Position numbers and translations under genes: made by a program. The notes under the pieces are model-generated. The model did not search any database. It saw nothing but the letters and a program-made list of their open reading frames with translations, and was not told the origin of the DNA. A DNA stretch of 64,000 nt from Candidatus Doudnabacteria bacterium (GTDB taxonomy: Bacteria > Patescibacteriota > Doudnabacteria > UBA920 > O2-02-FULL-48-8): positions 696,235 to 760,234 of the forward strand of contig JBBCGO010000001.1 of NCBI GenBank assembly GCA_037200925.1, in the 5' to 3' direction. Shown here piece by piece: positions 1 to 63,769 of the stretch; the stretch's first letter is position 1, and each line of letters starts with the position of its first letter.

Positions 1-487
1 TGTTGGGCTTGATAGGCAACAGGTAGGTGACGCTACCGATGACACTGTCGAGGTAGGTCGGTTTCTCGAACTTCTTGCCGTTGACGATCAACTGTACAGG
101 AAGGTCGAGTACGGGTTGGGTTCCGCGGGCGATAAACACTTCAGCTATTAGTAGTGTCTTATCGGCTGCGAGTCGGGGTTTCCCCCACCAGACCCGTAAG
201 GGCTTCGTGTCCGGCATCGGCGCAACAGGCGCCGGCGCCGGAATTGGTGCGGCGATCGGTGTAGTCGGTGCAGCAGCGATCACTCGTGCATTGTCTGTGT
301 GCGGGCCTTTCGGCCGGTCGATCGAGTCGTACTCAACTCGCGTTCCGATGATCTTCATCTCAGGAGGAGTATGTCCTCTGATGCTGAAGTGAACGTCGGC
401 TAAGCCGTCAGATGAACCGCCGTCGGGTCGAATAAACCCGTCGTGGCCACCTGAAGAGAATCGATTGACCGTTCCTGTACTACTCAT
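1..487 (-). CDS. hypothetical protein; N-terminal part in window, continues past window edge at position 1
   Basis: Minus-strand ATG (complement of 485-487) preceded by GGAGG SD with 4-nt spacer. Reading frame stays open to position 1. Pro/Ala-rich linker. The listed + ORF 75..392 is its antisense. Confidence 0.35.
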   Translation of the reverse strand, partial: MSSTGTVNRFSSGGHDGFIRPDGGSSDGLADVHFSIRGHTPPEMKIIGTRVEYDSIDRPKGPHTDNARVIAAAPTTPIAAPIPAPAPVAPMPDTKPLRVWWGKPRLAADKTLLIAEVFIARGTQPVLDLPVQLIVNGKKFEKPTYLDSVIGSVTYLLPIKPN

Positions 488-824
488 TGTGCCTCCGGGC
501 CCACTCACGCAATGCGCTGAGGAGCTGATGCTGATGTTGACGAACTGAACTGATGAACTGTTGATGTTGTTGTTAAAGCCGCCTTTTTATAGGCGACGAT
601 ATAGAGATATTCTGTTTTCAAGGAGCTTCCGGCGCCTCATCTGAGGTACCGGAATCACCATGGAGGTGATTAAGTATGTTAGCATAAATGAGGTGTTTTG
701 TCAATAGTATAAATCAAAAAGCCCAATATAAAGGCGTGAGTTAGTTATAGTATAAATTCTGTTAGAAAGTGATTATACCATAAATTGGTAATATATGTCA
801 AATAGACGAATTAGTGACTTTAAT

Positions 825-866
825 TAAAAAAAGAGCCGTTCAGATGCTTTCGCAATCTGACGACTC
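825..866 (-). terminator. intrinsic terminator downstream of kinase gene
   Basis: Imperfect hairpin (gtcagat...atctgac / gagtcg..cggctc) followed by T-run on the minus strand, directly 3' of the kinase stop at 903. Confidence 0.4.
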
Positions 867-902
867 TACATACTTATAGACAAACCTCCTTTGAGTTTGC
901 TG

Positions 903-2690
903 CTATCGCCCGACAAGATGGGCGATAAGGAAGATCAACCACGAACCGATAACGATCGTGGATAATCTTGGATAGACGGCCCATCTCCATGACTGAGGTA
1001 ATTTCCCGCGTCGCGAAAGATTAGCCGCACGCCCGGAAACGAATGCCAACCAGAAAGGCAAGGTCGCAAGCCACGGATTTTTTAACGCGACGCCGACGAG
1101 ACCCGTGATTGTGAATACCACCGCGAACAGCACGTACAGATTAGTTGTTGCTGTCGCGGAGCTGGACGAACCCGCGTGACCTTTGAACCACTGACCGGCT
1201 TTGTGTGCTTTCTGGTTGAACGAACCGGCATGATTTTTTAACCACACACCGGCTTGCTGCGCTTTCTGGCTTGCGGCGTGCGTGCGCGGCCGATTGACTC
1301 TGACCGTTTCGTCGTGGATCGGCCTTCCCGTGGTTTCTTCCACAACGATGCGCAGCCGCCGTTCCACGACTGTGATCGGCACGCGAGTGTCGATCTGATC
1401 AAGATGGAAATAACCCGTCGCATCGGTGAGCACTCGGCTGACACCGGTCGGATGTCCGCCGCCGCTGTCCACGATGTCCGCCACGACAACGTTGACGGCA
1501 GGTACCGGCTGGTTGCGGCTGAATCGGTGAACTTCAATGACCTTGCCCATGAGATCCCTCTGGTACTCGGTACCGTTGGGCATGACCACGGTCGGTGTTT
1601 TTCCCCAAACGATCTTGTATCGACCCGCCAGTTGGGGAACGGGAGCGGCAACTGTAGGTGTTGCAACAGGCACAGGTGCGGGTTTGGTGACAGGCCGGAG
1701 ATGGACAGGCAGAGGTTGGTGCGCTTCGTGAACGCGAACCAGTTCCAGCCGGAGTTCTTCCGCCGACTGGTATCGTCCGGCGGGATTTTCATCCGTTCCC
1801 TTGATGAGGACCGCCTGCAGCTCCACGTCCTGAACGAACGTGCGAATAGCATGCAGCTGGTCGGGCCGGGTGTCCGGGAAGTCCTTGGCGTTGGCAATCA
1901 GTGCCCAGAGAGAAGCGCACAAGCTCCCGATGTCTGTGGAGGCAGAGATCGGTTTTCCTTTCTGCAACTGCTCCGGCATGGCAAACGCCGGGCTTCCCGC
2001 TCGGGTGCCGCCCCGACCCATAGTGGCGGCGGAGAAGGATTCGAATCGAGAAATGCCGAAGTCCAGAAGACAGGCTGTGTTGCTTGTGCGAAGGACGTGG
2101 AGATTGGCAGGTTTGATGTCCCGGTGGATGACCGGTTTGGCGATGCCCATCTCGACATAGCCGTGCAGGTAGTCTCGAAGAATAATGCAGATCTCGATAC
2201 CATACGGCAAGACTTGCAGGAACGGGATGGAGCCGACGCGGTCTTGGATCTTGTCCAGATCCTCGCCGGGCATGAACTCCATGGCCATGAGCAGCCGTCC
2301 ATGAGCGCGGAACGCTCCTTCGCCGATGGGGAACGGAGCGAATACTGGAGGATTGGCCACAAGTTGATGGCCAAGCCGTTCCTGGATATGCGCTTCACGT
2401 TCAAACATGGCTTCCAGTTTGCGCTGAACCTTCGGATTGCCGCTGGGCAGCATTTCCTTCACGGCGCGCTGGTCGCCACTGCGATTGGTCGTCAGGTATG
2501 TCGTGGCCATACCGCCCCAGCCAAGCACTCTGATAACAGTGTACTCGTCTGTTGCCGCGGGTAGGGCCGTTCCTGCGATCAACGCCGCGGGTGGCTGGGG
2601 ATCGAGATTGCTGCAGGCCGGATTGATGCAGAGGGTTGCTGCCTCTGGATAATCACGGCTGCATTTCGGGCATCTTCGTTGGATAGGCAT
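903..2690 (-). CDS. Ser/Thr protein kinase with N-terminal zinc ribbon and C-terminal membrane anchor
   Basis: Hanks kinase motifs: HRDIKPANLHV catalytic loop and DFGIS. N-terminal CPKCS...C..PAC zinc ribbon. Pro-rich linker, a CarboxypepD_reg-like beta domain (VDSGGGHPTGVSRVLTDATGYF) and three predicted C-terminal TM helices. Confidence 0.85.
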   Translation of the reverse strand: MPIQRRCPKCSRDYPEAATLCINPACSNLDPQPPAALIAGTALPAATDEYTVIRVLGWGGMATTYLTTNRSGDQRAVKEMLPSGNPKVQRKLEAMFEREAHIQERLGHQLVANPPVFAPFPIGEGAFRAHGRLLMAMEFMPGEDLDKIQDRVGSIPFLQVLPYGIEICIILRDYLHGYVEMGIAKPVIHRDIKPANLHVLRTSNTACLLDFGISRFESFSAATMGRGGTRAGSPAFAMPEQLQKGKPISASTDIGSLCASLWALIANAKDFPDTRPDQLHAIRTFVQDVELQAVLIKGTDENPAGRYQSAEELRLELVRVHEAHQPLPVHLRPVTKPAPVPVATPTVAAPVPQLAGRYKIVWGKTPTVVMPNGTEYQRDLMGKVIEVHRFSRNQPVPAVNVVVADIVDSGGGHPTGVSRVLTDATGYFHLDQIDTRVPITVVERRLRIVVEETTGRPIHDETVRVNRPRTHAASQKAQQAGVWLKNHAGSFNQKAHKAGQWFKGHAGSSSSATATTNLYVLFAVVFTITGLVGVALKNPWLATLPFWLAFVSGRAANLSRRGKLPQSWRWAVYPRLSTIVIGSWLIFLIAHLVGR

Positions 2691-2886
2691 ATCGGCTCTC
2701 CTCTTGCGAAACGAGTTGATGTTGATCGCCTTGCGGCGAGATGTAAATTCGAAAGAACAATTGGTCTTACTGAGACCATCGTGGAATCAATCAGCTTAAA
2801 TCCATAATGCTCGCAGTAAAAAGAGATGGGAGAGAGCAAGGACATCATGTCCATGAACTCTCTCCCTAACTTGCTTGAACGAATAG

Positions 2887-3375
2887 CTACTTGATGGGGA
2901 ACCTTGCGGTCTTGCCGGCGGTCACCGCGACATTGGCACCGCGCGGAATTTCCACCGAGTCCATCGGCTTGTACCGGACTGTGGTGATGAGTGAGAAGCC
3001 GTTGCCGCCGCCGCCGGTCGCGAACATCTTGCCGTCGCGGGCAAAGATCTTCACCGGCGTGCGCGACACGGTTTCGTCGTCGCTCTTGAACGTGACCGTC
3101 TCGTCGGTGTCGGTGTGCGCGATGGTGAACTCGTCACCCTCGCGCATCTCGATGCGGCGTGCGTCCGGCAGAACGATGGTGCCGACCACCGGACCTTTGA
3201 CGTCTGTGGGGACGCTCACGCTCGGCATATCCGGCATGGCCGGCGGCGCTTCGTTGACTGCCACAGCGTCGGTCGTTTGAGAGGAGGAACCGGCTTCCGT
3301 TGTCAGATCCTCGCTGCCGCAGTCCGGACAGGAGGTGGCGGTAAAGCCGATGTTTCCGCATGCGTTACACTTCAT
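2887..3375 (-). CDS. FHA-domain protein with N-terminal zinc ribbon
   Basis: Start moved to MKCNACGN (ATG complement of 3373-3375, GGAGA SD), which removes the overlap with the upstream vWA gene. CxxC...CxxC ribbon. C-terminal FHA-like segment (ETVSRTPVKIFARDGKMFATGGGGNGF). Confidence 0.55.
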   Translation of the reverse strand: MKCNACGNIGFTATSCPDCGSEDLTTEAGSSSQTTDAVAVNEAPPAMPDMPSVSVPTDVKGPVVGTIVLPDARRIEMREGDEFTIAHTDTDETVTFKSDDETVSRTPVKIFARDGKMFATGGGGNGFSLITTVRYKPMDSVEIPRGANVAVTAGKTARFPIK

Positions 3376-3439
3376 GTGATTGTCTCCATAGAAGGTGAGT
3401 CGATCCCGGCTGCTTTTTGTGGCAGCCGGGTAGGATGAT

Positions 3440-4759
3440 CTAGTCGTCGTCGGTGAAGACTTGAGTGGCGCGTCCGGCTTTCTTGGCCGTTGCTGAGCCG
3501 CCCTTGGTCGCAGACTCCTGGCGCAGCTGGTCAAGATCCGTGAGGGATCCCGCCAGATCAGCGTCGTCGGCGAACACCTGGGTTGCGCGCTTCACTCTTT
3601 CCGCGGCCTTGCCGAGGATGTCCTGTTGCGCTTTGGCGTCCGTGGTCCTGCTGGCCTGATCGAGAGCGCGCGCCGCGTCGGCCTGCGCTGCGATCTTTTC
3701 CACGTAGGAGTTGACCTTGCCGCCGGTGACCTTCGCGAATCTCTGTCGCATCTCATCGCTTGCCAGCTCGATCGGGTCATTGATGCCCATGCCTGAGCAG
3801 GCGCCGAACACCGCGAGTTTGCCGAAAGTGCGTTCCTGGCTATCAACGTTGTCCGGGAACTTCGGCATCTGGGTGACGAATTGCACGAACACGTCGAGTC
3901 GGTCACCGGGACCGATCTCGCCGAGTTGCACGGTTGCCGGTGTGTTGGAACCGGCCACGTAGTTGCGCTTGCCGTTCTTCCAGACAAATTCGCAGTGCGC
4001 CACCTCCTGGACCAGGCCGATGGGAGTGAACTCCAACCGGGCATTGGTGACCGAGGCGTGAATCGCCTTGCGGAGCGAGCCTGCGAAGAACTTGCCGACC
4101 TCGAACGATGACGAGCAGGGTTTGAAGTTCGCCCCGCCCGACATTTCTTTGAGGCGCATTTCATCGTCCGCCGAGAGGTTGTCCGCGACACTGGCCGTGT
4201 AGATGACTATGCCGCCGTCGCGGATCTCGGTCGACATGGGGCGCGGGTCTTCGAAGTGCGCTTCGTGCGCGCCGTCGCTGATGAAAGCGATGGCGCGCGT
4301 CATTCCCGCGATCTTCCCCAGCTCGCGCCTGGCCGTGTCCAGCCCGACGTTGTAGTTGGTGCCTCCCTGCGGGTAGACATCGTCTTCGATCGCGCTGAGT
4401 GCGGCTTCCTTGCCGTCCGTATTGCACAAGGTGAAAGGCAATGCCATCTTCGCATCTCGGTGGAAGGTGATGATGGCAACCTGGTCGCCGTCGCGGAGCA
4501 GGTCAATGACCTGCTTGGCAGCGCTTTTGATGGCCTTGTAGATCTGATTGTCGCTGCCGCCATCAGAGCTGATGGGGTTGTCGGTCGAGTTGGAGACGTC
4601 GAGGACGAGGGCGAGTGCGACGTTGCCGTCGTTTTCACCTTCACTGCTTTCCGGCATCCTGATGCTGATGCAGGTTTTCACCGTCGGTACGAGCGCGGGA
4701 TTCATCTTCATCTGCACTGAGTGTGTCAGGCAGGAAAGACTGAGATTCGGTCTCTTCAT
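3440..4759 (-). CDS. von Willebrand factor A (vWA) domain protein, TerY-like
   Basis: MIDAS motif LVLDVSNST. vWA fold signatures (GGTNYNVGLDTAR, IAFISDG). Start chosen at MKRPNLS (GGAGC SD, 8-nt spacer); the upstream ORF-track start would overlap PP2C by about 300 nt. Confidence 0.75.
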   Translation of the reverse strand: MKRPNLSLSCLTHSVQMKMNPALVPTVKTCISIRMPESSEGENDGNVALALVLDVSNSTDNPISSDGGSDNQIYKAIKSAAKQVIDLLRDGDQVAIITFHRDAKMALPFTLCNTDGKEAALSAIEDDVYPQGGTNYNVGLDTARRELGKIAGMTRAIAFISDGAHEAHFEDPRPMSTEIRDGGIVIYTASVADNLSADDEMRLKEMSGGANFKPCSSSFEVGKFFAGSLRKAIHASVTNARLEFTPIGLVQEVAHCEFVWKNGKRNYVAGSNTPATVQLGEIGPGDRLDVFVQFVTQMPKFPDNVDSQERTFGKLAVFGACSGMGINDPIELASDEMRQRFAKVTGGKVNSYVEKIAAQADAARALDQASRTTDAKAQQDILGKAAERVKRATQVFADDADLAGSLTDLDQLRQESATKGGSATAKKAGRATQVFTDDD

Positions 4760-5837
4760 GATCGTAAGCTCCTTCGACGAAGGTTGAACGGATGGTTGTG
4801 ATCGCGGCGAAAACATTGTCGTCGCCCGGCGTGATCGGCGGGTCTTTCTCGGGCTCAAGAACCTGGCCGTATGGCAATTGGACGTTGACGGCTTGGTCGA
4901 GAAGCTGGCTGACAGCGTGTTCTGGTTCGGCTTCACCCCGTGCGATACCTGCGATGGCGTCCGGACTGAGCATGTTCGTCAGTCCATCCGAGCAGTGCAG
5001 AATATGTACATAAGGAGTCTCCTGATCGAGTTGGAACTCGCGGAGGATAACTTGGCCGTTGGCTTGCGGACTTTGTCCGACCCAGCGGGTAAGAGATCCT
5101 TTATGCGGTCCTTCAGCCCAGGCATCGTCAGTGTTGAGCTTTTCCACCTTGTCCTCAGTTATGAGGAACAGGGCGGGGTCGCCGACGCAGTAGCCGTGCA
5201 TGATGCCGCGTCCTTTTTTGAGATCGCAGATCAGAACACTGGCTGTCCATGTGGCACCGAAGACTTTCGCCGGCCGCTGATGCTTGTCAATTCCGACCTC
5301 CTGTACGCCGAAGCTGTAGACGCACCCCGTCACCCAGTTGATGCTGGGGAAAAAATAAGTCTTCACCTTTTCGTTCAGAAGCTGCCAGAATTGGTCGCGG
5401 TCGACGAATTTGTCTTCTTGGTCGAACGCCGGGAGGCGCACGCCCATTGCCGCGAGAAAGAGATGGACCGTGGTGGCGGCCCAGCGTTCTCCGCCCGTAC
5501 CGCCGCCGATGCCGTCGGCACCGGTTTGCAGAATGACGCAGTAGCCGTGAAGCGGATAGTCGACCCTGCTGATCGCGCAATAGTCTTGGTTGTTTTCCTT
5601 GACCTTGCCGATCACGTGGTCGCAGCCCGTGGCCACTTTCATCCGGTCGTTGAGCGAAATCCCAGCCGGAAGTTCCGGCTGGTGCTCCGGCTCGTCGATG
5701 AGTGTGTTGCCGATCAGGTCCTCTTGTTGCGGGGGACCGTTACCGATTGCAGGAGGCGGGTTTGTGAGAGGTGCACCGCACGTCCCACAATAGTCCCGTC
5801 CTTCGGCAACAGGTTCGTTGCATTCCGGGCAAGTCAT
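4641..5837 (-). CDS. PP2C-family Ser/Thr protein phosphatase with N-terminal zinc ribbon
   Basis: MTCPECN...CGTCG ribbon. PP2C motifs (GCDHVIGKVKENNQD, ILQTGADGIGGGTGGE, HCSDGLTNML). Confidence 0.8.
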   Translation of the reverse strand: MTCPECNEPVAEGRDYCGTCGAPLTNPPPAIGNGPPQQEDLIGNTLIDEPEHQPELPAGISLNDRMKVATGCDHVIGKVKENNQDYCAISRVDYPLHGYCVILQTGADGIGGGTGGERWAATTVHLFLAAMGVRLPAFDQEDKFVDRDQFWQLLNEKVKTYFFPSINWVTGCVYSFGVQEVGIDKHQRPAKVFGATWTASVLICDLKKGRGIMHGYCVGDPALFLITEDKVEKLNTDDAWAEGPHKGSLTRWVGQSPQANGQVILREFQLDQETPYVHILHCSDGLTNMLSPDAIAGIARGEAEPEHAVSQLLDQAVNVQLPYGQVLEPEKDPPITPGDDNVFAAITTIRSTFVEGAYDHEETESQSFLPDTLSADEDESRARTDGENLHQHQDAGKQ

Positions 5838-6047
5838 CCTTGTGGTTCCTTTCGAGGAAACGGTTGTGTATGTGGAAAGACCGGAATCGGTCTGTAAATA
5901 AGTAGCTATTCAAGTTGTAAAGAACAGGCCTCCTTAAACAAAAACGGCAAGAGATTATCTTGCCGAAAAGCTTACCGAAACAGTTCCTGTAGGCTATTCG
6001 GAAAGACAAAAAAATGAACAGGGATTTATTATTAAAGTAACTTTAAA

Positions 6048-36897: not shown

Positions 36898-39489
36898 ATG
36901 ACGGAGAGAAAAACCAAATTAATATTAATAGCAGTTATTTCTGCAGGAATATTCGGAGTCGGATTTTATTTTCTTGCGTTGCCTCATCTCAATTTGAATA
37001 AAACGGCAACTACTGTAACCAAGTTGTTTGGCTCAGTATTTCCGACGCCTAAATTCCCTTCAACCGGAACGATAGAAACGCCGGTTGAAGGAACTCCCAC
37101 CGCAGTAACACCTGATGTAAACACTCCGGCTGCAGGAACATCTGCCGGTACGACACCAGCTATTGTAATACCACTTGCAACTAGACAAGCATTTGCGAGA
37201 CCGATCACCGATACGACACCACAATTGCTCGGCAAGACAATATTTAGAAAGAAAGACCAGGCGACGATACCGGTTCATCCTCGTTTCAAGAACGGTAATA
37301 CAAATATTGCTTTTTATGCATTGTGTCCGACCGTGGCTTGTCCTGCCGTCGGTACCACGGCTTCACCCAAGTATAATTTTTTTGCAGAAGATACAACTAC
37401 CGGTGATCAACCGTTTTCAAATTATTGGACTCCTGACCCTTCTTTTCATAAAATTGTAGTAGTAGAATATGTTAATGATAATCACCAATTTACGTGTTCG
37501 GATCTTAGCTTAGATCAGTGTATTGCCAATCGACATTTCATCAGTCAAACTTCTATACAACTTGTAGATGACAATGCGATAACTTTTCATATAATTACGC
37601 TCGTTGAGAACGGGACCGACGGTACGGCCGTTCCTTCTGACTTTATGGTTCACGTCAAGAATGCCGGTGCGGATGTTGCAGCAAGTCCTGCATCCGGAAC
37701 GGCAGTATTACCGGGAACTTTATATACACTTTCTGCCGGCACCTATGCTGTCAGTGAGGATGCAAATGCTCTTTACACCCAAAGCTTCAGCGGGGATTGT
37801 GATTTGACCGGCGGCATTACTCTGGTGGCAGGGGATGACAAGACATGTACCATCACCAACACTTTCGGTCCGCCGGTGACAACAACGGCCACCCTGCACG
37901 TCATTAAACAGGTTAATAACAGTAGCGGCGGCACGGCAGTTGCTTCCGACTTTAATATTCACGTCAAGAATGCCGGAGCGGATGTCGCAGGAAGCCCGAC
38001 AGTCGGAACAGCTGCGCCGGGATCTTTATATTCACTCGCTGTCGGCATATACAACGTCAGCGAAGATGCCAACACTTCTTATACGCCAAGCTTTAGCGGT
38101 AATTGTGATATAACCGGCAGCATTACTCTGGTGGCAGGGGATGACAAGACATGTACCATCACCAACAATCAAATATCTGCAAACACGACACCGGCTGCTC
38201 TTCATGTCATTAAGCTCGTAGTTAATGGAAGTGACGGCATCGCAACTTCTTCTGACTTTAATATCCACGTAAAGAATGCAGGTGGGGATGTTGTGGGAAG
38301 TCCTGCGGTCGGAGTTGCAGCACCCGGAACTTTGTATACACTTTCTGCAGGCGCGTATGCTGTCAGTGAGGATGCGAATGCCCTATACACGCAAAGCTTC
38401 AGCGGGGATTGTGATGCTGGTGGCAATGTGACGTTGCTGGCTGGCGACAATAAGACATGTACCATCACCAACACTCAAATTTCTTCAGTACCGATAGTAC
38501 CGCCACCTGGGACGGGTACAGTTTTGGCAACACTTCATGTAATCAAACTCGTGGTTAATAGCAGCGACAGCACGGCGGTTGCATCCGACTTTAATATCCA
38601 CGTAAAGAATGCCGATGTGGATGTGCCGGGGAGCCCGGCAGTCGGGGCTGCGACGCCCGGAACTTCTTATTCTCTCTCTCCCGGCACGGTTGTAATAAGC
38701 GAAGATGCCAACATCGCTTATGTACAAAGCTTTAGCGGGGATTGTGATTCGACCGGCAATATTACGCTGTCGGTTGGCGACGACAAGACATGTACGATTA
38801 CCAACACCAATATTTCTGTTCCGGTACCTACCCCTATTCCCGAGCCCACCCCAACTCCAACTACCTCGCCAGACACCACAGCACCGGTCATCATACTTAT
38901 TGGCGATCCAACGATTAATCTAAATGTCGGCGACACATATATAGAACAAGGTGCTACCGCAACAGATGATGTCGATAGCTCGGTTGCAGTTGTGGTCAGC
39001 GGGACTGTGGACACATCTACAGCCGGTACTTATATAATTCACTACAACGCCACAGACGCTGCCGACAACCCTGCGACCGAAGTTACCCGAACGATCAATG
39101 TAGCCGAATCAGTCCCAGCTTTACCCAGTACGGGATCGGGTCCTCTTATGCTAAGTAATTCATCAGGTATTATTATACTGAATGTGATCCTCGGGATAAT
39201 TTTGGCTTCGCTTGTTTTCTTGTTTATAAGGAAACGCAGGGGTAGCCCGGTTGTTAAACAGGATCAGCAAATAGACAGCACCGCGATTAGTTCTGCCCCA
39301 ACTGCACTCGTCGGGCGTAATAATCCCGAACAACCCACAGCGTCAGGGGATCATACAAGCACCGGCAATAATCAGATCGATAAGCCGCCGATCCAGACCC
39401 CCACCCCAGAGCCTACTCCGCTCCCAGCACCAAAAATAACTCCCGAACCTACACAGCCGGAAAACAATGATAAGGAAGTTTTGAAATAA
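36898..39489 (+). CDS. cell-surface repeat protein with Ig-like (DUF5011-like) domain and LPSTG sorting-signal-like motif
   Basis: N-terminal TM/signal. Five tandem ~100-aa repeats. Ig-like segment (PVIILIGDPTINLNVGDTYIEQGATATDDVDSS...GTYIIHYNATDAADN). LPSTGSG, a hydrophobic stretch and RKRRG, followed by an unusual ~100-aa Pro/Thr-rich tail. Confidence 0.75.
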   Translation: MTERKTKLILIAVISAGIFGVGFYFLALPHLNLNKTATTVTKLFGSVFPTPKFPSTGTIETPVEGTPTAVTPDVNTPAAGTSAGTTPAIVIPLATRQAFARPITDTTPQLLGKTIFRKKDQATIPVHPRFKNGNTNIAFYALCPTVACPAVGTTASPKYNFFAEDTTTGDQPFSNYWTPDPSFHKIVVVEYVNDNHQFTCSDLSLDQCIANRHFISQTSIQLVDDNAITFHIITLVENGTDGTAVPSDFMVHVKNAGADVAASPASGTAVLPGTLYTLSAGTYAVSEDANALYTQSFSGDCDLTGGITLVAGDDKTCTITNTFGPPVTTTATLHVIKQVNNSSGGTAVASDFNIHVKNAGADVAGSPTVGTAAPGSLYSLAVGIYNVSEDANTSYTPSFSGNCDITGSITLVAGDDKTCTITNNQISANTTPAALHVIKLVVNGSDGIATSSDFNIHVKNAGGDVVGSPAVGVAAPGTLYTLSAGAYAVSEDANALYTQSFSGDCDAGGNVTLLAGDNKTCTITNTQISSVPIVPPPGTGTVLATLHVIKLVVNSSDSTAVASDFNIHVKNADVDVPGSPAVGAATPGTSYSLSPGTVVISEDANIAYVQSFSGDCDSTGNITLSVGDDKTCTITNTNISVPVPTPIPEPTPTPTTSPDTTAPVIILIGDPTINLNVGDTYIEQGATATDDVDSSVAVVVSGTVDTSTAGTYIIHYNATDAADNPATEVTRTINVAESVPALPSTGSGPLMLSNSSGIIILNVILGIILASLVFLFIRKRRGSPVVKQDQQIDSTAISSAPTALVGRNNPEQPTASGDHTSTGNNQIDKPPIQTPTPEPTPLPAPKITPEPTQPENNDKEVLK
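37560..38830 (+). repeat. five tandem ~300-nt coding repeats (each with Cys pair SG.CD...KTCTITN)
   Basis: LHVIK..VN.S.G.A.ASDFNIHVKNAG.DV.GSP.VG.AAPG.LY.L..G.Y.VSEDAN..YT.SFSGDCD..G.ITL.AGDDKTCTITN repeated five times. Confidence 0.7.
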
Positions 39490-43758: not shown

Positions 43759-45179
43759 TGAAAAAAATATTAATTGTTTTCGGAATCGTATTTGCTTTCG
43801 CGGTTTTGCCGCGGATGGTTTTGGCTGCAACTTTATATGCCAGCCCCTCCTCAGGAAGTTTTGGAGTAGGCTCTTCTTTTACAGTTTCCATAAAAACCAA
43901 CACGCAGGGAGCTGCGGTCAACACTGCTGAAGCCACGATCTCTTATTCCACCGACACCCTGGACCTGGTCTCGGTCAAACAAGGTTCAACTTTTTTCCTC
44001 TCCGCACCCGGTTCGCCTGCCAAAGGAACAGGCACCGCTTATTTTGGCGGGGGATTACCGACTCCAGGATATAATGATACTGCCGGCGTACTCGGCACCA
44101 TGACGTTCCGCGCCAAAGCTTCAGGCACGGGAATTGTTACGATCGATTCAGGAAAAGTTTTGTTGAATGACGGCAATGGCACCAATGCTTTTACTTCCAG
44201 CTCAGGCGGCCGATTTACGATAACAGCAGCATCGCTCCCAGCCGGCGCGGTCACAGTAACAAGCGTCACGGATCCGGTTTCTGATGATTGGTATAACCAA
44301 CCCAATGCGACTTTCAGCTGGGATCGGCCGGCCGGCGTTTTTGGTTATAGTTTTGTGCTGGATCAAATTCCTGATACTGTCCCGGATGATATTTTAGACA
44401 CGACTATCACAACTTCTAAATCATACACGGGTTTAACAGACGGAACTTGGTATTTCCATATTAAAGCGCGGGTGCAATCCGCATCTGCCGGGTTTGGCCG
44501 GACCACGGATTATAAAATTCAGGTTGATACGTCGTCGTCGCCGGCTTTTGAGGTGAAACTGCTCGGGGGAACTGATGCTAATCATGTGACCCAAACACCC
44601 ACGATAATATTTGAGGCAATGGATGCAACATCCGGCATTGATCATTATGAAATAGTCCTTGATAACCGGACAATCGCAAATAAAGCTGACTCGCCATATA
44701 CTTTTGATAAGATCGCAACCCCGGGCGCGCATTTAATCAAGGTTTTGGCTTTTGATAAAGCGGGTAACGAACAAACTGCCCAGCTGCCGATCCAGATCTC
44801 TGTGGCGGGCGGATTTTTGCAAAAAACCTGGACGCTCCCTGTATATCTTTTGCTGATCGTCAATCTGCTGATCCTGCTGATAATAACGCTGATCCTGTGG
44901 CTGATATTCAAGCGGAAGAAAAAGCGGACTGCTGTATCTGACGAGATCGCGGATATTCAAGCCGAGATCGATCACAGTTTGGAGCAACTGAAGCAGAGGA
45001 TCAACAATAAGCTTTTGACTCTGACAGCGCGGTCAACCCAGGAAATATTTAATAAGGAAGAACAAGCGTCTAAAGATATTTCGGTCAGCGTGAACAAAAC
45101 CCGCAAGAGCGTGGATAAGAAGATAGGCAAACTTTCCAGAAAAATTTCGAAACAAAAAGAAGACAAAATTTTAGAATAA
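43755..45179 (+). CDS. membrane-anchored cohesin-like domain protein 3 (with extra domain and coiled-coil tail)
   Basis: Paralog of 42757..43758 over the first ~250 aa. An additional beta domain. TM helix. Charged C-terminal tail. Confidence 0.6.
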   Translation: MMKKILIVFGIVFAFAVLPRMVLAATLYASPSSGSFGVGSSFTVSIKTNTQGAAVNTAEATISYSTDTLDLVSVKQGSTFFLSAPGSPAKGTGTAYFGGGLPTPGYNDTAGVLGTMTFRAKASGTGIVTIDSGKVLLNDGNGTNAFTSSSGGRFTITAASLPAGAVTVTSVTDPVSDDWYNQPNATFSWDRPAGVFGYSFVLDQIPDTVPDDILDTTITTSKSYTGLTDGTWYFHIKARVQSASAGFGRTTDYKIQVDTSSSPAFEVKLLGGTDANHVTQTPTIIFEAMDATSGIDHYEIVLDNRTIANKADSPYTFDKIATPGAHLIKVLAFDKAGNEQTAQLPIQISVAGGFLQKTWTLPVYLLLIVNLLILLIITLILWLIFKRKKKRTAVSDEIADIQAEIDHSLEQLKQRINNKLLTLTARSTQEIFNKEEQASKDISVSVNKTRKSVDKKIGKLSRKISKQKEDKILE

Positions 45180-45183
45180 AAAG

Positions 45184-45212
45184 AAAACGCGGATCCAGAG
45201 GATTCGCGTTTT
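45184..45212. terminator. bidirectional intrinsic terminator closing the surface locus
   Basis: AAAA-cgcgga-tccagagga-ttcgcg-TTTT. Paralogous to 45949-45977. Confidence 0.6.
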
Positions 45213-45222
45213 GACTCCCGCC

Positions 45223-45540
45223 TTAGGGTTGATTTTCCAGCAGAGAGCGGACCTTGTCCAGGAACTGCTGCTCTGTGAAAGGCCATGTGATCTCCGGTAT
45301 TCCGTTTCCTGCCAGAACCGGCGTAGTCACGAGGATTGTTTGGCCTGACAAAGATAAGTCTTTAACTACGATCCCGCCTCGATCGCCGATTTCATCGATG
45401 ACGATCAGATCTTGCCGGCTGCAGAATCTTTTGAGCTCATCCGCGTCCCTCGCACGCATAACCTGATACTCGTCATGCAGCCAGGTATGAAAGCGGTCAA
45501 GCTTGGTCTTCCTGATGCCTGCGATGAGAACTTTTTTCAT
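45223..45540 (-). CDS. atypical (pseudo-)receiver domain protein
   Basis: REC-like beta-alpha pattern (KVLIAG, DLIVIDEIG, TILVTT, PFTEQQFLDKV) but lacking the N-terminal acidic pair. Confidence 0.45.
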   Translation of the reverse strand: MKKVLIAGIRKTKLDRFHTWLHDEYQVMRARDADELKRFCSRQDLIVIDEIGDRGGIVVKDLSLSGQTILVTTPVLAGNGIPEITWPFTEQQFLDKVRSLLENQP

Positions 45541-45902
45541 TTGCCGGCTCCGATCGAACGATCTCTTTCGCGGGGTTGGTTCGGGTTAACGACCACTACC
45601 TTGTATAGATAGTGACGGTGTTCATCGCCTTTGACAACACGTATTCTGTAAGCTGAGTTTGTGTGCTTCAAAGCTTCGGAGAGCCGATTGAAGGAGATCT
45701 TCTCATGGCTCCATCGGACGACACCGAGATATTGCAGTCTGGTTATGACCTCGTCGTAGCTGATGGGCTGATTGGAATTATCTTTGAAGACCTTTAAGTA
45801 CGCTAAAAAGAGAGGTCTGAGATTGAGAGAGAGAATTGCAGCCCAGTCCGACTCGGTTAACCGGTCCGTCACAATTTTTTCATACGCCCTTTGAGCGGCC
45901 AC
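45537..45902 (-). CDS. hypothetical protein
   Basis: 121-aa ORF overlapping the downstream gene by 4 nt (operon). GGAGG SD. Confidence 0.45.
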   Translation of the reverse strand: MAAQRAYEKIVTDRLTESDWAAILSLNLRPLFLAYLKVFKDNSNQPISYDEVITRLQYLGVVRWSHEKISFNRLSEALKHTNSAYRIRVVKGDEHRHYLYKVVVVNPNQPRERDRSIGAGK

Positions 45903-45923
45903 TTGCTCCTCCTTCTGACTTTA

Positions 45924-45934
45924 GAATATATCAG
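45924..45934 (-). promoter_or_regulatory. extended -10 promoter (cTGATATATTc) for the 45902 gene
   Basis: Member of a 5-copy conserved promoter motif cTGnTATAnT in this array. Confidence 0.35.
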
Positions 45935-45948
45935 ATTTAAGCAAAAAG

Positions 45949-45977
45949 AAAACGCGGATTACGGGAATCCGCGTTTT
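45949..45977. terminator. bidirectional terminator downstream of the 45986 gene
   Basis: aaaacgcggatt-acggg-aatccgcgtttt, a perfect 12-bp stem. Confidence 0.6.
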
Positions 45978-45985
45978 GAGCAGGC

Positions 45986-46168
45986 TTACCTGAAAATTAG
46001 TTGGTGTGGACCTGCGATTTCGACTTTTCCTGCAAGTTCCAGCACACTTATTTTGAGATCTTTGCTCCTATCAGGCGCTTCTGTAGTGAGGCTGACAACG
46101 ACTGTGTCGCCAACTTCAAACAGCATCCAAACTCCTGGCGTGTCTTTTTGAGACACGTAAACTTTCAT
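45986..46168 (-). CDS. small hypothetical protein (60 aa)
   Basis: GGAGG SD 4 nt upstream of the ATG. Own terminator. Confidence 0.4.
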   Translation of the reverse strand: MKVYVSQKDTPGVWMLFEVGDTVVVSLTTEAPDRSKDLKISVLELAGKVEIAGPHQLIFR

Positions 46169-46290
46169 GCGTCCTCCGTAGACTTTCGCTCGCCGCTAGT
46201 GTAGCATACCTAGCGCGTTTCGCAGTCCGAACTCAACGGGAAGAAACTTGATGACCATGTAACTCAAGAGAGCGTAGAAGAAAAAAAATG

Positions 46291-46461
46291 CTATGAATAA
46301 CCCGATAAGTTTCCGGCGCGGGATCTCTTGCACTCGCTCTCCTTATCCGTGGGTATTTGCCGCCGGTTCTTTAGGTAGGACACTCTGAGACTCAACCAGT
46401 CGTACCCTTCGCCCGCAATATAGAGAGAGTACCCGATCAAGTACCCAAGGAGTTTCTTCAT
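46291..46461 (-). CDS. small hydrophobic protein (56 aa)
   Basis: AGGAGG SD 6 nt upstream of the internal ATG (MKKLLGYLIGYSLYIAG...). The longer 105-aa track ORF lacks an SD and runs into a terminator. Confidence 0.4.
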   Translation of the reverse strand: MKKLLGYLIGYSLYIAGEGYDWLSLRVSYLKNRRQIPTDKESECKRSRAGNLSGYS

Positions 46462-46497
46462 CTTATCCTCCTGCCAGGTCCATGTTATGGACATTTG

Positions 46498-46508
46498 AAT
46501 ATAGCAGG
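46498..46508 (-). promoter_or_regulatory. extended -10 promoter (cTGCTATATTc)
   Basis: Same motif family. An adjacent inverted repeat TTGGCAA-N3-TTGCCAA lies at 46511-46527. Confidence 0.3.
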
Positions 46509-46570
46509 TTTGGCAAGTTTTGCCAATCCATAGAAATACTAATGAGTTTGCTACTGAGCAAAAAAAATCC

Positions 46571-46602
46571 TCCCAGCTCTGTTGCAGAACTAAGAGGAGT
46601 TT
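46571..46602 (-). terminator. terminator-like hairpin containing conserved GTTGCAGAACTAAGAGG half-site, copy 1
   Basis: Minus strand: hairpin then TTTTTTTT, immediately 3' of the 46605 gene. Confidence 0.45.
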
Positions 46603-46604
46603 GA

Positions 46605-47033
46605 TCACTTTTTTTTCTTCAAGTAATCGTTGTTCAAGTGCTTAGCTATCGCCTCCGCCATTGACTGGCGGTTGGCCGCGCCCCGGCCTTTGTTCACGGA
46701 GTAACTCCAGAGCACGATGCCGTCTTTACTGACCAGAGTGACCGAAGTGGAACCCGTATCTGCGATCCCGGCGCAATAGGCAAACAGACACCTTGCGATC
46801 TTGCCGGCTCCGCTTTCAGATTTGATTTCTACTTTCGTCGCCTTTAGCGTGTAGGTCGAGCCTTCTTCTTTGGTCGTCACCTGCACTGCGACTTCCTTTT
46901 TCAGCATGGCGGCGGCGATGTATGTATCAAAGCCGTCTTCCATGGGTTCGATGTAGAGCGTCGGCTTCGGTGCCTGAGCGAGCGCATTCGCCGTTACAGT
47001 CAGCACCATGAGCATCATCAGCAATCGTTTCAT
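46605..47033 (-). CDS. secreted protein with signal peptide, unknown function
   Basis: MKRLLMMLMVLTVTANALAQA signal peptide. Confidence 0.6.
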   Translation of the reverse strand: MKRLLMMLMVLTVTANALAQAPKPTLYIEPMEDGFDTYIAAAMLKKEVAVQVTTKEEGSTYTLKATKVEIKSESGAGKIARCLFAYCAGIADTGSTSVTLVSKDGIVLWSYSVNKGRGAANRQSMAEAIAKHLNNDYLKKKK

Positions 47034-47052
47034 CGGTCCTTCTTCCTGTGGG

Positions 47053-47469
47053 TTATTCGTCCGGGATTGGAATTTCTTCGGTCCGGTCCTCTACGCCGAA
47101 GATAAGTTTCGGGTTCATCATCTCCTGTTTTGAAAGCTCGGCCGTGATCTTGCTGCCGCCGGATTCAAGCAGTTTTTCCGCCAATCTCAAATAGAGCACG
47201 TCTTTTTCTTCTTGACTGCGTGCAAACGGCTCGATAGCGGTGCTTATGTATGCATCAAAGAAATGAAGCATGTCCTCATCCAGCCGCGCGGTGAAGCCAG
47301 GTTGGGCGCTTGCTTCTTTCGCAGACAGGAGCGCTACGAGAAACGAAGCTAGCCCCATGATCCACGCATCCGGTTGGTTTGCTTCCAAAATATTGTCGAA
47401 GAGCTTTTCCAAAAGTTTTTGCCTCTGCATATCACGAACCTGCCAGGCGGGCGCTGTTCCTTCTGACAT
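47053..47469 (-). CDS. hypothetical protein
   Basis: 138 aa, 19 nt upstream of the secreted-protein gene (operon). Confidence 0.55.
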   Translation of the reverse strand: MSEGTAPAWQVRDMQRQKLLEKLFDNILEANQPDAWIMGLASFLVALLSAKEASAQPGFTARLDEDMLHFFDAYISTAIEPFARSQEEKDVLYLRLAEKLLESGGSKITAELSKQEMMNPKLIFGVEDRTEEIPIPDE

Positions 47470-47537
47470 AAGTCCTCCAAATCTTTTGATTGGTAAGGTC
47501 AGAGTTTCAGGCGGGTTTGCGTCGGTTCCGGACGTTT

Positions 47538-47568
47538 GAATATATCAGTTTTTGTCCGCAATGTCAAT
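47538..47568 (-). promoter_or_regulatory. promoter: TTGACA - 18 nt - extended -10 cTGATATATTc
   Basis: The -35 is rc of 47563-47568; the -10 is rc of 47539-47548. Confidence 0.4.
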
Positions 47569-47607
47569 TGGTCAGTTCCCATTTTTTTAAAAAAGGACAA
47601 AAGAAAA

Positions 47608-47640
47608 CCTCTCAGTTCTGTTGCAGAACTAAGAGGTTGA
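47608..47640 (-). terminator. terminator hairpin with conserved GTTGCAGAACTAAGAGG half-site, copy 2
   Basis: cctctcagttctg-ttg-cagaactaagagg, then T-rich run on the minus strand. Confidence 0.5.
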
Positions 47641-47671
47641 ATTGCCTGGGGCTCAAGCAAACCTCAGGCAG

Positions 47672-47944
47672 TCAGCTATCGGAGGTTTTTTGGCGTTGCT
47701 CCAAAAATCTTCCTATACCCAGTATTTTCATCTTGTAGTTTATAACACGCGGGCTGATAGAAAGAAGTTCGGCTGCGCCTTTTTGCACCCAGTCACTCAT
47801 CCTGAGCGCTTCGATGATCGCCTGGCGCTCTATCTCTTTGAGGGAAGTGCCGGCGAGCGGAATGTGTACCAGTTTGCCGCAGGGTGGTTCATCAATTTTA
47901 TCGGGAGGCGGTTCCCGTCCTCCTCCGTCGAGTCCGTGGCTCAT
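47672..47944 (-). CDS. Fis-family HTH DNA-binding protein (NtrC C-terminal-domain-like), stand-alone
   Basis: TSLKEIERQAIIEALRMSDWVQKGAAELLSISPRVINYKMKILGI matches the Fis/HTH_8 pattern. Confidence 0.6.
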   Translation of the reverse strand: MSHGLDGGGREPPPDKIDEPPCGKLVHIPLAGTSLKEIERQAIIEALRMSDWVQKGAAELLSISPRVINYKMKILGIGRFLEQRQKTSDS

Positions 47945-47973
47945 GCGGCTCCTCCTGTCGTTAAAGGAAGTTT

Positions 47974-48134
47974 TAGATAAGCGCGGCGTATGCCAGCATC
48001 GTAGCCAGCAAGAGAGCGGCGATCACCAGCCGTTTGTCTTTCTTGGGCGTAACCCGCTGGATCTTTCTGAGTGCAAAAACCGCCAGGGCGAGAATAGCCA
48101 CTCCGGATAAGACTTGGAAGTCGGTAGCATCCAT
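47974..48134 (-). CDS. small single-TM membrane protein (53 aa); absent from ORF track
   Basis: AGGAGG SD 5 nt upstream of the ATG. MDATDFQVLSGVAILALAVFAL... Sits between the REC and HTH genes. Confidence 0.45.
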
Positions 48135-48149
48135 TGTCCCTCCTTTCGT

Positions 48150-48488
48150 CTACAGTGCCAGAAGTTTTTCTAGCAGCAAGTCTGGTGCATCCTTAGAGTT
48201 TTTCCAGACGAATGGCATGCCTTCGGGTACGTCCACAGGCCGCATGGTCGAGAACAGCACCACTTTTTTCCCCTGCGTCAGGAGTTGCTGCACGAACCGG
48301 AAACCGTCGTTGCGATTTTTCGGGTCAAGCGTGCCGTCGCAGATGATGCCGTCGAACCGGTCGTTGGACATTTCTTCGAGCGCACGAGAGATCTTGTCGG
48401 CCCAGACGACTTCGTGGCCGTGATCTTGCAAGTAACCTTGGACTGTCTTGGCCAGTTGTTCGTGGTCCTCGATATACAGGATCTTCAT
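48150..48488 (-). CDS. stand-alone response-regulator receiver (REC) domain protein
   Basis: Canonical REC residues: ED acidic pair, phosphoacceptor D in GIICDG, T in VVLFST, K in WKNSK. Confidence 0.7.
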   Translation of the reverse strand: MKILYIEDHEQLAKTVQGYLQDHGHEVVWADKISRALEEMSNDRFDGIICDGTLDPKNRNDGFRFVQQLLTQGKKVVLFSTMRPVDVPEGMPFVWKNSKDAPDLLLEKLLAL

Positions 48489-48554
48489 CTAAAGCCTCCG
48501 CTTTCGATTGTTCAGGTCTGTGTTCAGTCGTAGTTTGGGCCGGTTCTGACATTA

Positions 48555-48565
48555 AACTATATCAG
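48555..48565 (-). promoter_or_regulatory. extended -10 promoter (cTGATATAGTt) for the REC-TM-HTH operon
   Basis: Same conserved motif family. Confidence 0.35.
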
Positions 48566-48585
48566 ATTCCAGGCAAAAAGAAAAC

Positions 48586-48618
48586 CCCTTAGCTTTGTTG
48601 CAGAACTAAGAGGTTTTA
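48586..48618 (-). terminator. terminator hairpin with conserved GTTGCAGAACTAAGAGG half-site, copy 3
   Basis: ccccttagctttg-ttg-cagaactaagagg, then T-rich run on the minus strand. Confidence 0.5.
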
Positions 48619-48662
48619 AGCAAAACATCAAGTGCCTTGTGGTGCTATTGGCTGAACTCTTC

Positions 48663-49094
48663 TTATAGTTCCTGCGCCAATTGAAGACAACCTTTGAGCT
48701 TACGCATTCGGAACGGAAGACCTTTCCTGATGAAGAAGATGTCGTACCCTTTTGAAGAGTCGTACCCTAAAGGGGTCTCCTCAACAAGCTCCGGTATAGA
48801 CCAGGTACTGATTGGTTTGTTGTCGGTCTCGCGTAATTTCTTGAGAACCAGCAACTTTCTCGGCTTCCATTTGATACTGAATATCTTTCGCCAATCTTCT
48901 TTCGTGAGCCGAGTGTCGAACTGGCGATTCACAATGACGTTGTGCTGCACTACCAAACCGCGACGGGTATGCCGGGCAGTGAACACGATCTTGTCTTCGA
49001 GAATGGTCTTACCCGCAAGTGATTGCTTGATAGCTTTTGCAATTTCAAGAGCGAGAGGGGTCAGGGTAGTCATCTGGTCTGTTTTATGAGACAT
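48663..49094 (-). CDS. hypothetical protein
   Basis: Start set at MSHKTD (GGAGG SD, 5-nt spacer). Confidence 0.5.
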   Translation of the reverse strand: MSHKTDQMTTLTPLALEIAKAIKQSLAGKTILEDKIVFTARHTRRGLVVQHNVIVNRQFDTRLTKEDWRKIFSIKWKPRKLLVLKKLRETDNKPISTWSIPELVEETPLGYDSSKGYDIFFIRKGLPFRMRKLKGCLQLAQEL

Positions 49095-49160
49095 AAATCC
49101 TCCAAACAAATTCTCGTGTTAAGGTCAGTATTTCTGCGGCTCATCCCATTACTAATTTAT

Positions 49161-49171
49161 AATTATAGCAG
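49161..49171 (-). promoter_or_regulatory. extended -10 promoter (cTGCTATAATt) for the 48663 gene
   Basis: TGn plus perfect TATAAT on the minus strand. Confidence 0.4.
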
Positions 49172-49258
49172 ATTTTAGTGTTATTGTCAAGATACCTATT
49201 TGACTAAACGTTTTAGTATAGCCAACAAGGGCATCTTATGAACAAAAGTACCGCCAGC

Positions 49259-49640: not shown

Positions 49641-51100
<1,460 letters not shown>

Positions 51101-63305: not shown

Positions 63306-63380
63306 GGGTGTGTAGCTCAGTGGTAGAGCACGTCACTGATAATGACGGGGTCGGAAGTTCGATCCTTCCCACACCCACCA
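63306..63380 (+). tRNA. tRNA-Ile (anticodon GAT)
   Basis: Acceptor gggtgtg/cacaccc. Anticodon loop ct-GAT-aa. T-loop ttcgatc. ACCA 3' end. Confidence 0.85.
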
Positions 63381-63388
63381 GAAAAATT

Positions 63389-63641
63389 TATGCATTTTAT
63401 TTCAGGAACGATCGGAGTGATAGCAGGGATTTTGCTCATTCGATACTCCGTCGCGCTCACCGATATCTTTGGCCGGGTTCAATGGGCCGAGAATCACCTT
63501 CGCGGAGGACTGGCCGGCACGTATTCTTTGTACCGGATCGTTGGCGTGGTTTTCGTAATCCTTTCGCTGTTTTACATATTTAATGTTTTAGGTTTTATAC
63601 TCAGCCCTTTAAGTTCGATATTTGGCGGCCTTAAGCAATAG
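63389..63641 (+). CDS. small membrane protein (84 aa)
   Basis: Two hydrophobic helices. No SD. The longer ORF-track version overlaps tRNA-Ile. Confidence 0.3.
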
Positions 63642-63695
63642 ATTTCATAAAATTAGGGAAATTCCGAGCAATCCGGGGAGTTGCGAATGACTAAG

Positions 63696-63769
63696 GGGCC
63701 TGTAGCATAGTGGTAGTGCACCCGGTTTGCATCCGGGGGGTGGGAGTCCGATTCTCCCCAGGTCCACCA
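63696..63769 (+). tRNA. tRNA-Ala (anticodon TGC)
   Basis: Acceptor gggcctg/caggtcc with G3:U70 identity pair. Anticodon loop tt-TGC-at. ACCA 3' end. Confidence 0.85.

Follow-up and report, generated by a model that had tools for sequence, protein, structure and literature searches.

A probable lineage-specific array of small genes with paralogous modules of predicted promoters and terminators next to the 16S rRNA gene of a Candidatus Doudnabacteria genome

We analysed a 64-kb stretch of DNA (the window) from a Candidatus Doudnabacteria metagenome-assembled genome (GCA_037975565.1; JBBCBH010000057.1, a 964-kb contig) and, within it, an array at 45178-49190 in which ten small genes on the minus strand are packed into ~4 kb as five short predicted transcription units. 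The array is bounded on one side by a divergent 16S rRNA gene (49641-51099) and on the other by a convergent block of genes for giant surface proteins, which extends as far as 45179. It is not an assembly artefact, since over 5.6 kb its sequence agrees fully with that of L002, an independent Logan assembly of the same strain. An earlier note on this DNA, made from the sequence alone, had counted six units; we arrive at five predicted ones, J, I-H-G, F-E, D-C and B-A, since D lacks a terminator and C a promoter of the families described below, so that D-C is best read as one unit and C is probably co-transcribed with D. Two relatives have a C homologue in one unit with a small membrane protein, and that unit ends in the terminator of family T2.

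Each unit is headed by a predicted promoter of a common type. The motif CTGMTATADTY, recorded in the earlier note, occurs exactly five times in the window, always on the minus strand (45924, 46497, 47538, 48555 and 49161), with 0.19 occurrences expected from shuffled sequence for this pattern, which was derived from the sites. All five boxes have the orientation of a gene whose start codon, with GGAGG before it, lies 25-90 nt downstream, and TGn stands directly upstream of a TATAAT-like hexamer in all five. Three of the promoters have a -35 element (TTGACA or TTGGCA) at 17-nt spacing, and in the other two the U-tract of the preceding terminator occupies the -35 place; counted with TG, the match to consensus is 12/12 for PJ, which diverges from the 16S rRNA gene, and 11/12 for PF. 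In all this the sites resemble extended -10 sigma-70 promoters: TGnTATAnT lies 20-80 nt before GGAGG, and a -35 at 17 nt may be present or absent. The generic box TGnTATAnT (TGNTATANT) has 19 sites in the window, where 4 would be expected, and many unrelated genes have it upstream; it is hence the normal promoter type of this genome, and since promoters that directly follow a terminator also exist outside the array (40184, 55018, 58676 and 62671), box and terminator-abutting layout are both general habits of this compact genome. Unlike extended -10 promoters at large, however, the array copies also agree in the discriminator, in the base that precedes TG, in the initial 10-20 bases of the transcript and in part of the leader. 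Over the 20 nt downstream of the box they are the most alike among all 11,628 subsets of five of the 19 sites, with a common start like (A/T)AAnGTC(A/C)G(A/G)AAC, and the segment CTGACCTTAACAATC..AAAG..GGAGG recurs in three 5' untranslated regions (UTRs), those of F, I and J, whose leaders align; the leader from PB to GGAGG is short. RNAalifold predicted no consensus pairs in the shared 5'UTRs.

The units end in five hairpins that belong, as the earlier note had recognised, to two paralogous families. The core of T1, GTTGCAGAACTAAGAGG, has three matches in the window (46581, 47620 and 48597) even when 3 mismatches are allowed (0.14 expected), and T2, AAAACGCGGAT, forms two palindromic hairpins (45184-45212 and 45949-45977); the T1 copies in the window are 84-89% identical to each other, and the two T2 copies 84% identical over a 37-nt repeat. 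All five lie 3-60 nt past the stop codons of J, G, E, C and A, measure 29-33 nt with stems of 12-15 pairs, fold on the sense strand (free energy, dG, -13.6 to -21.8) and run into a U-tract, whose image on the plus strand is the (G)CAAAAAGAAAAC run that had been noticed beside them. With such a stem and a U-tract right after stop codons they are like intrinsic terminators, and a consensus terminator scan picks up three of the five; T2, with an A-tract and a U-tract between convergent genes, is moreover like bidirectional terminators, and its copy at the array end (45178-45213) probably acts in both directions. In nine T1 copies from four genomes, 94% of alignment cells are paired, the changes being mainly from U-A to U-G, and two pairs are altered on both sides. 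T1 forms a much more stable fold in sense than in antisense RNA because its 3' arm has G opposite U, and this strand-specific pairing points to an RNA hairpin in the minus-strand transcript, i.e. a terminator, and not to a double-stranded DNA site. Unrelated intrinsic terminators are normally alike in structure only, and the other terminator-like hairpins in the window indeed have sequences unrelated to T1 and T2; T1 differs from such terminators in that its primary sequence, in the loop and 5' arm, is conserved among paralogues and species.

Copies of these modules were sought in the window and in ~17 kb of flanking genome (L046 and L047), ~81 kb in all, and none of the T1, T2 or promoter families was found outside the array. 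As the motif patterns were taken from the sites themselves, shuffle enrichment statistics are biased, and the independent evidence is the absence of matches in the other 60 kb of the window and the ~17-kb flank. Specific to the array are the first transcribed bases, the leader segment upstream of the ribosome-binding site and the T1 and T2 sequences. The proposal in the earlier note of a duplicated promoter-terminator scaffold, to be judged by aligning the intergenic modules and to be abandoned if motif and hairpins were ubiquitous, is thus borne out in part: alignment reveals paralogous promoters, leaders and terminators (repeat families D1, D2, D3 and D6 and alignment A1) whose promoter flanks and hairpins are confined to the array, but the bare box and the layout are generic.

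Searches farther afield returned no relatives of the modules. The 18-mer T1 arm gave 7 chance matches, in unrelated taxa, in 185,579 species-representative genomes (a collection that does not include the source genome); a metagenome scan with the hairpin pattern gave 17 matches, all of them unrelated generic terminators without the TTCTGCAAC core; a viral scan gave 0; and modules and leaders matched no family in Rfam. Neisseria Correia elements, repetitive extragenic palindromic (REP) sequences and bacterial interspersed mosaic elements (BIMEs) are intergenic repeats that supply promoters or terminators, are scattered over the genome in tens to hundreds of copies and frequently bear terminal inverted repeats or target duplications. 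Compared from general knowledge, the array modules are like them as short intergenic repeats with hairpin potential that would act as transcription signals and recombination substrates, and unlike them in numbering five to six copies at one locus, with none in the other ~77 kb examined; our module alignments show no terminal inverted repeats or target-site duplications flanking the copies. We therefore rejected a dispersed-repeat reading, no copy lying outside the array in the ~81 kb. An uptake-signal or dispersed-repeat role for T1 was likewise discarded, as sub-words of its arm are not enriched elsewhere in the window (an extra T1-arm 10-mer at 39287, inside a coding region, is probably due to chance), and so was a role of leader or T1 as translational enhancer through complementarity to the organism's own 16S rRNA, matches not exceeding those of shuffled controls. 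A literature search for promoter or terminator repeats in Doudnabacteria or the candidate phyla radiation (CPR) found nothing.

Three related genomes of the same clade, L010 (Logan SRR26786853), L036 (GCA_039931165.1) and L042 (Logan SRR14843471), carry the T1, T2 and promoter families adjoining ClpP and/or 16S, with different genes in a different order. L010 begins as promoter-(138, 113, REC, 62-aa HxxxCxxC protein)-T1-promoter-(141, B/J-like)-T1 and continues as promoter-(34, C)-T2-promoter-(E)-hairpin+T1-promoter-(~125 nt non-coding)-terminator, with convergent ClpP-NusA next. In L036 the 5' end of 16S is followed by promoter-(E)-hairpin+T1, then by two decayed promoters, a different REC gene and ClpP, and L042 reads T1-promoter-(110-aa lipoprotein, E)-hairpin+T1-promoter-(84-aa zf-HC2 membrane protein, C)-T2-(B)-terminator-ClpP. 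The relatives' flanking core genes correspond to 17-23 kb of the window, with a nucleotide identity of about 80%, and this synteny gives 16S / array / ClpP as the ancestral site. The junction E-T1-promoter is kept in all four genomes and C-T2 in three (window, L010 and L042), and the units run E, C, B in the window and L042 and B-like, C, E in L010. The accessory, variable region suspected by the earlier note, which had advised comparing strains for presence or absence of cassettes, is hence real: the locus and its module families persist in all three, and gene content and order differ. About 15 distinct cargo genes occur across the four genomes, of which REC, E, C and B are shared and diverge vertically. 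No array modules were found near a more distant B homologue (L043).

Two further features of the relatives concern these signals. Between the E stop codon and T1 they have an extra GC-rich hairpin (L010 3196-3228, L036 1233-1260 and L042 1120-1150), different in sequence in each, that gives tandem stem-loops and that the window lacks. A candidate small RNA without an Rfam match lies where the L010 array adjoins ClpP (3280-3415): behind an extended -10 promoter of the array type come about 125 nt that lack an open reading frame (ORF) and contain a CTAAGA..TCTTAG hairpin, and then a terminator of its own.

Sequence divergence sets these signals apart from their cargo. When the window is compared with L010, protein identity is 92-94% for ClpP, NusA and RNase Y, whose third codon positions agree at 56-59%, and it is 36-73% for array proteins; for T1, identity between genomes is 82-95%. 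The REC promoter (PI) and its L010 counterpart agree at 19 of the 21 nt that follow the box, with 26 consecutive nt counting the box. Such identity of T1 and the REC promoter, at a divergence at which neutral intergenic DNA would be unalignable, indicates that the modules are maintained by selection, and the transcription signals are better conserved across relatives than the genes they control. A 20-nt stretch of PD is identical to promoter A2 of L010, and PF is similar to the E promoters of L036 and L042.

For the predicted REC promoter, the association of the same promoter with different genes in different species is firm, one or two such cases at most being so. The REC leader, single in the window, has two counterparts in L010, the leader before the 138-aa gene and the ribosome-binding segment directly before REC, and the L010 138-aa and 113-aa genes sit between these two places, with duplicated translation-initiation segments on either side. 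In L042, one and the same 21-nt ribosome-binding/start segment belongs to the extra lipoprotein gene and to E, and the first codons of the two are similar. Insertion with duplication and deletion between direct repeats both fit, and either way the breakpoints lie in repeated modules. Gene insertion into the scaffold, as the earlier note had it, is thus one possible history, and deletion or recombination between modules would explain the same data.

Table 1. Genes and predicted transcription and translation signals of the array, in the order in which the minus strand is read.
Feature	Coordinates	Strand	Description
Promoter PJ	49146..49190	-	-35 TTGACA, 17-nt spacer, extended -10 TGCTATAAT and first transcribed bases
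J 5'UTR/translation-initiation segment	49095..49128	-	CTGACCTTAACA...GGAGGATTT; aligns with F and I leaders
Gene J	48663..49094	-	143 aa, orphan; C-terminal part paralogous to B
T1 after J	48574..48617	-	Hairpin CCTCTTAGTTCTGCAAC.. and U-tract; dG -16.1 sense, -12.3 antisense
Promoter PI	48540..48569	-	Extended -10 TGATATAGT, then conserved start TTTAATGTCAGAACCGG; no -35; abuts preceding T1
I 5'UTR/translation-initiation segment	48489..48520	-	Leader alignment with F and J
Gene I	48150..48488	-	112 aa, single-domain response regulator (REC)
Gene H	47973..48134	-	53 aa, small hydrophobic (membrane) peptide; called gene in two assemblies
Gene G	47672..47944	-	90 aa, stand-alone Fis-type helix-turn-helix (HTH_8) DNA-binding protein
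T1 after G	47598..47639	-	15-pair stem and U-tract; dG -21.8
Promoter PF	47523..47567	-	-35 TTGACA, 17-nt spacer, extended -10 TGATATATT, conserved start
F 5'UTR/translation-initiation segment	47470..47502	-	Leader alignment with I and J
Gene F	47053..47469	-	138 aa; no Pfam, PDB or PADLOC match
Gene E	46605..47033	-	142 aa, signal peptide, LptE/TraT/PqiC-like lipoprotein fold
T1 after E	46559..46600	-	14-pair stem and U8; dG -20.5 sense, -10.9 antisense
Promoter PD	46484..46526	-	-35 TTGGCA, 17-nt spacer, extended -10 TGCTATATT, start CAAATGTCCA
Gene D	46291..46461	-	56 aa, hydrophobic N-terminus; strong AGGAGG site 6 nt upstream
Gene C	45986..46168	-	60 aa; homologues in L010 (40%) and L042 (49%)
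T2 after C	45942..45978	-	AAAACGCGGATT..AATCCGCGTTTT, symmetrical, A- and U-tracts
Promoter PB	45911..45938	-	Extended -10 TGATATATT abutting T2; repeat family D2/D3
Gene B	45537..45902	-	121 aa, B/J family, winged-helix-like model
Gene A	45223..45540	-	105 aa, overlaps B by 4 nt
T2 between convergent A (-) and 474-aa cohesin-like gene (+)	45178..45213	.	Repeat family D6; dG -13.6 / -18.0

Among the cargo (Table 1), I matches the REC family in Pfam (PF00072, E=6.4e-9, 36.4 bits vs a cutoff of 30.2, residues 3-79), with a divergent C-terminal quarter, and the sole orthologue found beside the self match is 77% identical. G matches PF02954 (E=2.5e-11) and resembles the C-termini of NifA and DhaR. 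REC domains in the plural, as first reported, are not borne out: only that of I is demonstrable, and A was rejected, at the level of sequence, as a second one for want of a Pfam or PDB match and with a BLASTP E value of 15 against I. Nor is all of the cargo unrelated, since B and J are paralogues (BLASTP E=1e-6) and J aligns with the B family. Among 5.8 billion proteins J matches only itself, and among 1.84 billion representative proteins the B family has nine distant homologues. The confident AlphaFold2 (AF2) model of B (predicted local distance difference test score, pLDDT, 85.7) has a helix-helix-helix-helix-strand-strand layout, and its best structural neighbours, non-significant (E>=0.07), are the winged-helix DNA-binding domains of Fur, PadR and ORC; J, as a member of the B/J family, is possibly winged-helix too.

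E is the sole cargo gene present in all four genomes. Its 846 homologues, 55-72% identical, occur in high-GC soil bacteria; those at 60-72% identity are on contigs of 58-64% GC, those annotated as Acidobacteria reach 57%, and in high-GC bacteria (L038-L041) the gene has different neighbours. The AF2 model (pLDDT 84.5) matches LptE/TraT in Foldseek (E 3e-5, template modelling (TM) score about 0.5). The high-GC contigs and Acidobacteria annotation point to transfer between phyla, and E is likely a protein with a diderm-type LptE/TraT-like fold that was transferred into a monoderm CPR lineage.

No family was found for C, D, F or H, and tblastn detected no F homologue in L010, L036 or L042. The ribosome-binding site of C, CTACGGAGGACGC, is conserved in L042, and the slot of D before the C homologue is taken in relatives by other small membrane proteins (34 aa in L010 and 84 aa in L042). 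Small HxxxCxxC proteins (zf-HC2, anti-sigma-like) are encoded in the arrays of L010 (1333-1521) and L042 (1274-1528); the window array encodes no such protein, and that place is taken by H and by G, the Fis-type HTH protein. Searches of the array proteins gave only weak domain-level REC and HTH matches in PADLOC, no toxin domain in Pfam or NCBIfam and no meaningful match in PHROG, and blastn of the array against phage and plasmid collections gave no match. The toxin-immunity-like island that the earlier note had entertained thus lacks any defence, toxin, phage or integron signature.

The base composition of the array is close to that of its host. GC at third codon positions (GC3) is 0.41-0.70 in array genes and 0.55-0.60 in core genes; these values are not decisive, and foreign origin of the array by base composition was accordingly not retained as an explanation.

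Other parts of the window and its flanks also stand out. Its first 6 kb (1-6000; GC 0.54-0.59 and GC3 up to 0.79, vs ~0.47 in the remaining window) code for a Pkinase-domain protein with VWA-domain neighbours and may be foreign DNA, and five tandem T4SS_pilin (PF18895) genes lie about 5-8 kb upstream of the window start (L046 17377-19741). Between ClpP and the array is a 22-kb block (23462-45179), not at this site in L010, L036 or L042, that encodes a giant protein of 4477 aa containing long tandem repeats (28.5-36.3 kb) and then cohesin/dockerin-like surface proteins; in L036, 80 nt from the 3' end of the 474-aa gene survive as a remnant (1933-2009, 76% identical). The rRNA operon is fragmented, with ~12 kb of protein-coding genes between 16S and tRNA-Ile(GAT)/tRNA-Ala(TGC) (63306-63769), and these tRNA genes are followed by type IV pilus genes (PilM/N/O, T2SSE; L047 12000-20693), with no 23S gene there.

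We consider it probable, at roughly 65%, that the array is a lineage-specific, fast-evolving island of locally duplicated sigma-70 promoter/intrinsic-terminator modules that are reshuffled by recombination at the repeats. Each unit would start at a housekeeping sigma-70-type extended -10 promoter and end at a strong Rho-independent terminator and, having its own promoter and terminator, would be transcribed on its own. Promoters, first transcribed bases, part of the 5'UTR and terminators would be paralogous copies of a few ancestral intergenic modules, arising by local duplication and kept by purifying selection. Serving as direct repeats of 30-80 bp, the copies would allow recombination to delete, duplicate and re-pair ORFs, so that cargo and order would come to differ among genomes while the signals persist. 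The cargo would be mostly regulatory (the REC protein, the Fis-type HTH protein, the two winged-helix-like B/J paralogues and, in relatives, a zinc-finger anti-sigma-like protein) and for the rest envelope-associated (the secreted protein E and small membrane peptides), and the island probably serves to tune a trait of the envelope or of signalling. The parts are ordinary, and no new mechanism is revealed.

Several points weigh against this interpretation. Promoter and terminator activity is predicted from sequence features. The ~81 kb searched for further copies is about 8% of the 964-kb contig, and copies in the remaining ~880 kb are possible. Beyond the REC promoter, the classes of promoter orthology rest on 10-14 of 21 nt and are plausible but weak, and with six of the ten cargo proteins lacking a recognisable family the functional theme is weak. 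Both directions of rearrangement, insertion and deletion, appear compatible with the data. Lastly, the primary-sequence conservation of T1 exceeds the apparent needs of termination and hints at a further function.

This last point leads to the chief rival, which we judge improbable, namely that the units form a co-regulated regulon in which the T1 5' arm and loop and/or the transcript start (GTCAGAAC-like) bind a dedicated factor; this could be the island's own B/J or G, or an RNA-binding protein, with control by antitermination, RNA stability or repression, and the repeats would be retained for coordinating the units and not just as generic signals. T1 conservation is indeed far above neutral expectation and lopsided, seven close copies having 1 non-consensus letter in the 5' arm and adjacent loop and 12 in the 3' arm, but part of this asymmetry is expected because a U-rich 5' arm tolerates A-to-G changes opposite; the remainder is the main hint at a further, sequence-specific role. 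The first transcribed bases, too, are conserved across paralogues and species. T1 and the promoter that follows it are between about 35 and about 85 nt apart, a variation unlike that of a fixed operator. An inverted repeat TCTGA-N12-TCAGA spans the -10 box and start in two promoters only (W1 and W4) and was rejected as an operator, as neither the other promoters nor the relatives conserve it. Finally, the island encodes several putative DNA-binding proteins, but the winged-helix assignment of B is weak at the E values given above, and factor binding is putative.

Still less probable, in our assessment, is a gene-capture platform, an integron-like array without known integrase whose modules would offer docking homology for foreign ORFs that are expressed at once. 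Integron attC sites are imperfect palindromes of 55-140 nt with R''(RYYYAAC)...R'(GTTRRRY), R''/L''/L'/R' boxes and extrahelical bases, attC clusters without an integrase are known as CALINs, and integron cassettes are mostly promoterless and expressed from a common Pc promoter. The array is like integrons and CALINs in its co-oriented small genes, mostly orphan or without known function, in the repeated hairpin elements between them and in gene content and order that vary among the four related genomes, and the duplicated module segments bounding extra genes and the identity of E to proteins of high-GC soil bacteria would also fit capture. It is unlike them in lacking IntI and attC architecture, its short hairpins having U-tracts and no R/L boxes, and in that every unit has its own promoter. 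T1 was rejected as attC, only the copy after G showing ATTCAAC and GTTGAAT, by chance. No recombinase Pfam family occurs among the called genes of ~38-72 kb (window coordinates), of the stretch from ~9 kb upstream of the window start to ~12.7 kb, or of the relatives' contigs (the 12.7-38 kb interval has no Pfam table), and hence no integrase or recombinase is called in the annotated flanks. Moreover, with about 15 cargo genes over four genomes and several of them shared and vertical, the cargo looks like an old set reshuffled and not like ongoing capture, and viral, phage and plasmid collections have no matches. We give as little credence to a bolder version of the island itself, in which its modules would be an integrase-free recombination scaffold with which a reduced CPR genome swaps, captures (e.g. 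E, from soil diderm bacteria) and at once expresses small accessory genes in a single hotspot beside the rRNA gene, with the unusually conserved T1 5' arm and loop recognised by a dedicated factor.

Hardly credible is a mobile-element or prophage early-region remnant akin to the T4 early genes or SPO1 host-takeover module, which the array would resemble, from general knowledge of those systems, in its many small orphan genes with near-identical, dense strong promoters and interspersed terminators, and to which the distant B homologue in L043, near DUF5659 and HTH_36 genes, might be added, but from which it differs in its chromosomal position, the same in four syntenic genomes, its base composition near the host's, its lack of structural, replication and integration genes and the absence of PHROG, PADLOC, phage or plasmid similarity of note.

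To our knowledge, almost nothing is known experimentally of transcription signals and genome plasticity in CPR/Patescibacteria. On the interpretation we favour, a reshuffled island of duplicated modules, the locus is a clean comparative set of predicted CPR promoters, leaders and terminators under selection, and a case in which regulatory DNA persists longer than the genes under its control. The interval between the 16S rRNA gene and ClpP is a candidate hotspot for turnover of small regulatory and envelope genes, one of them probably from another phylum, and should these organisms become genetically tractable, the modules could be put to use as ready-made parts for expression.

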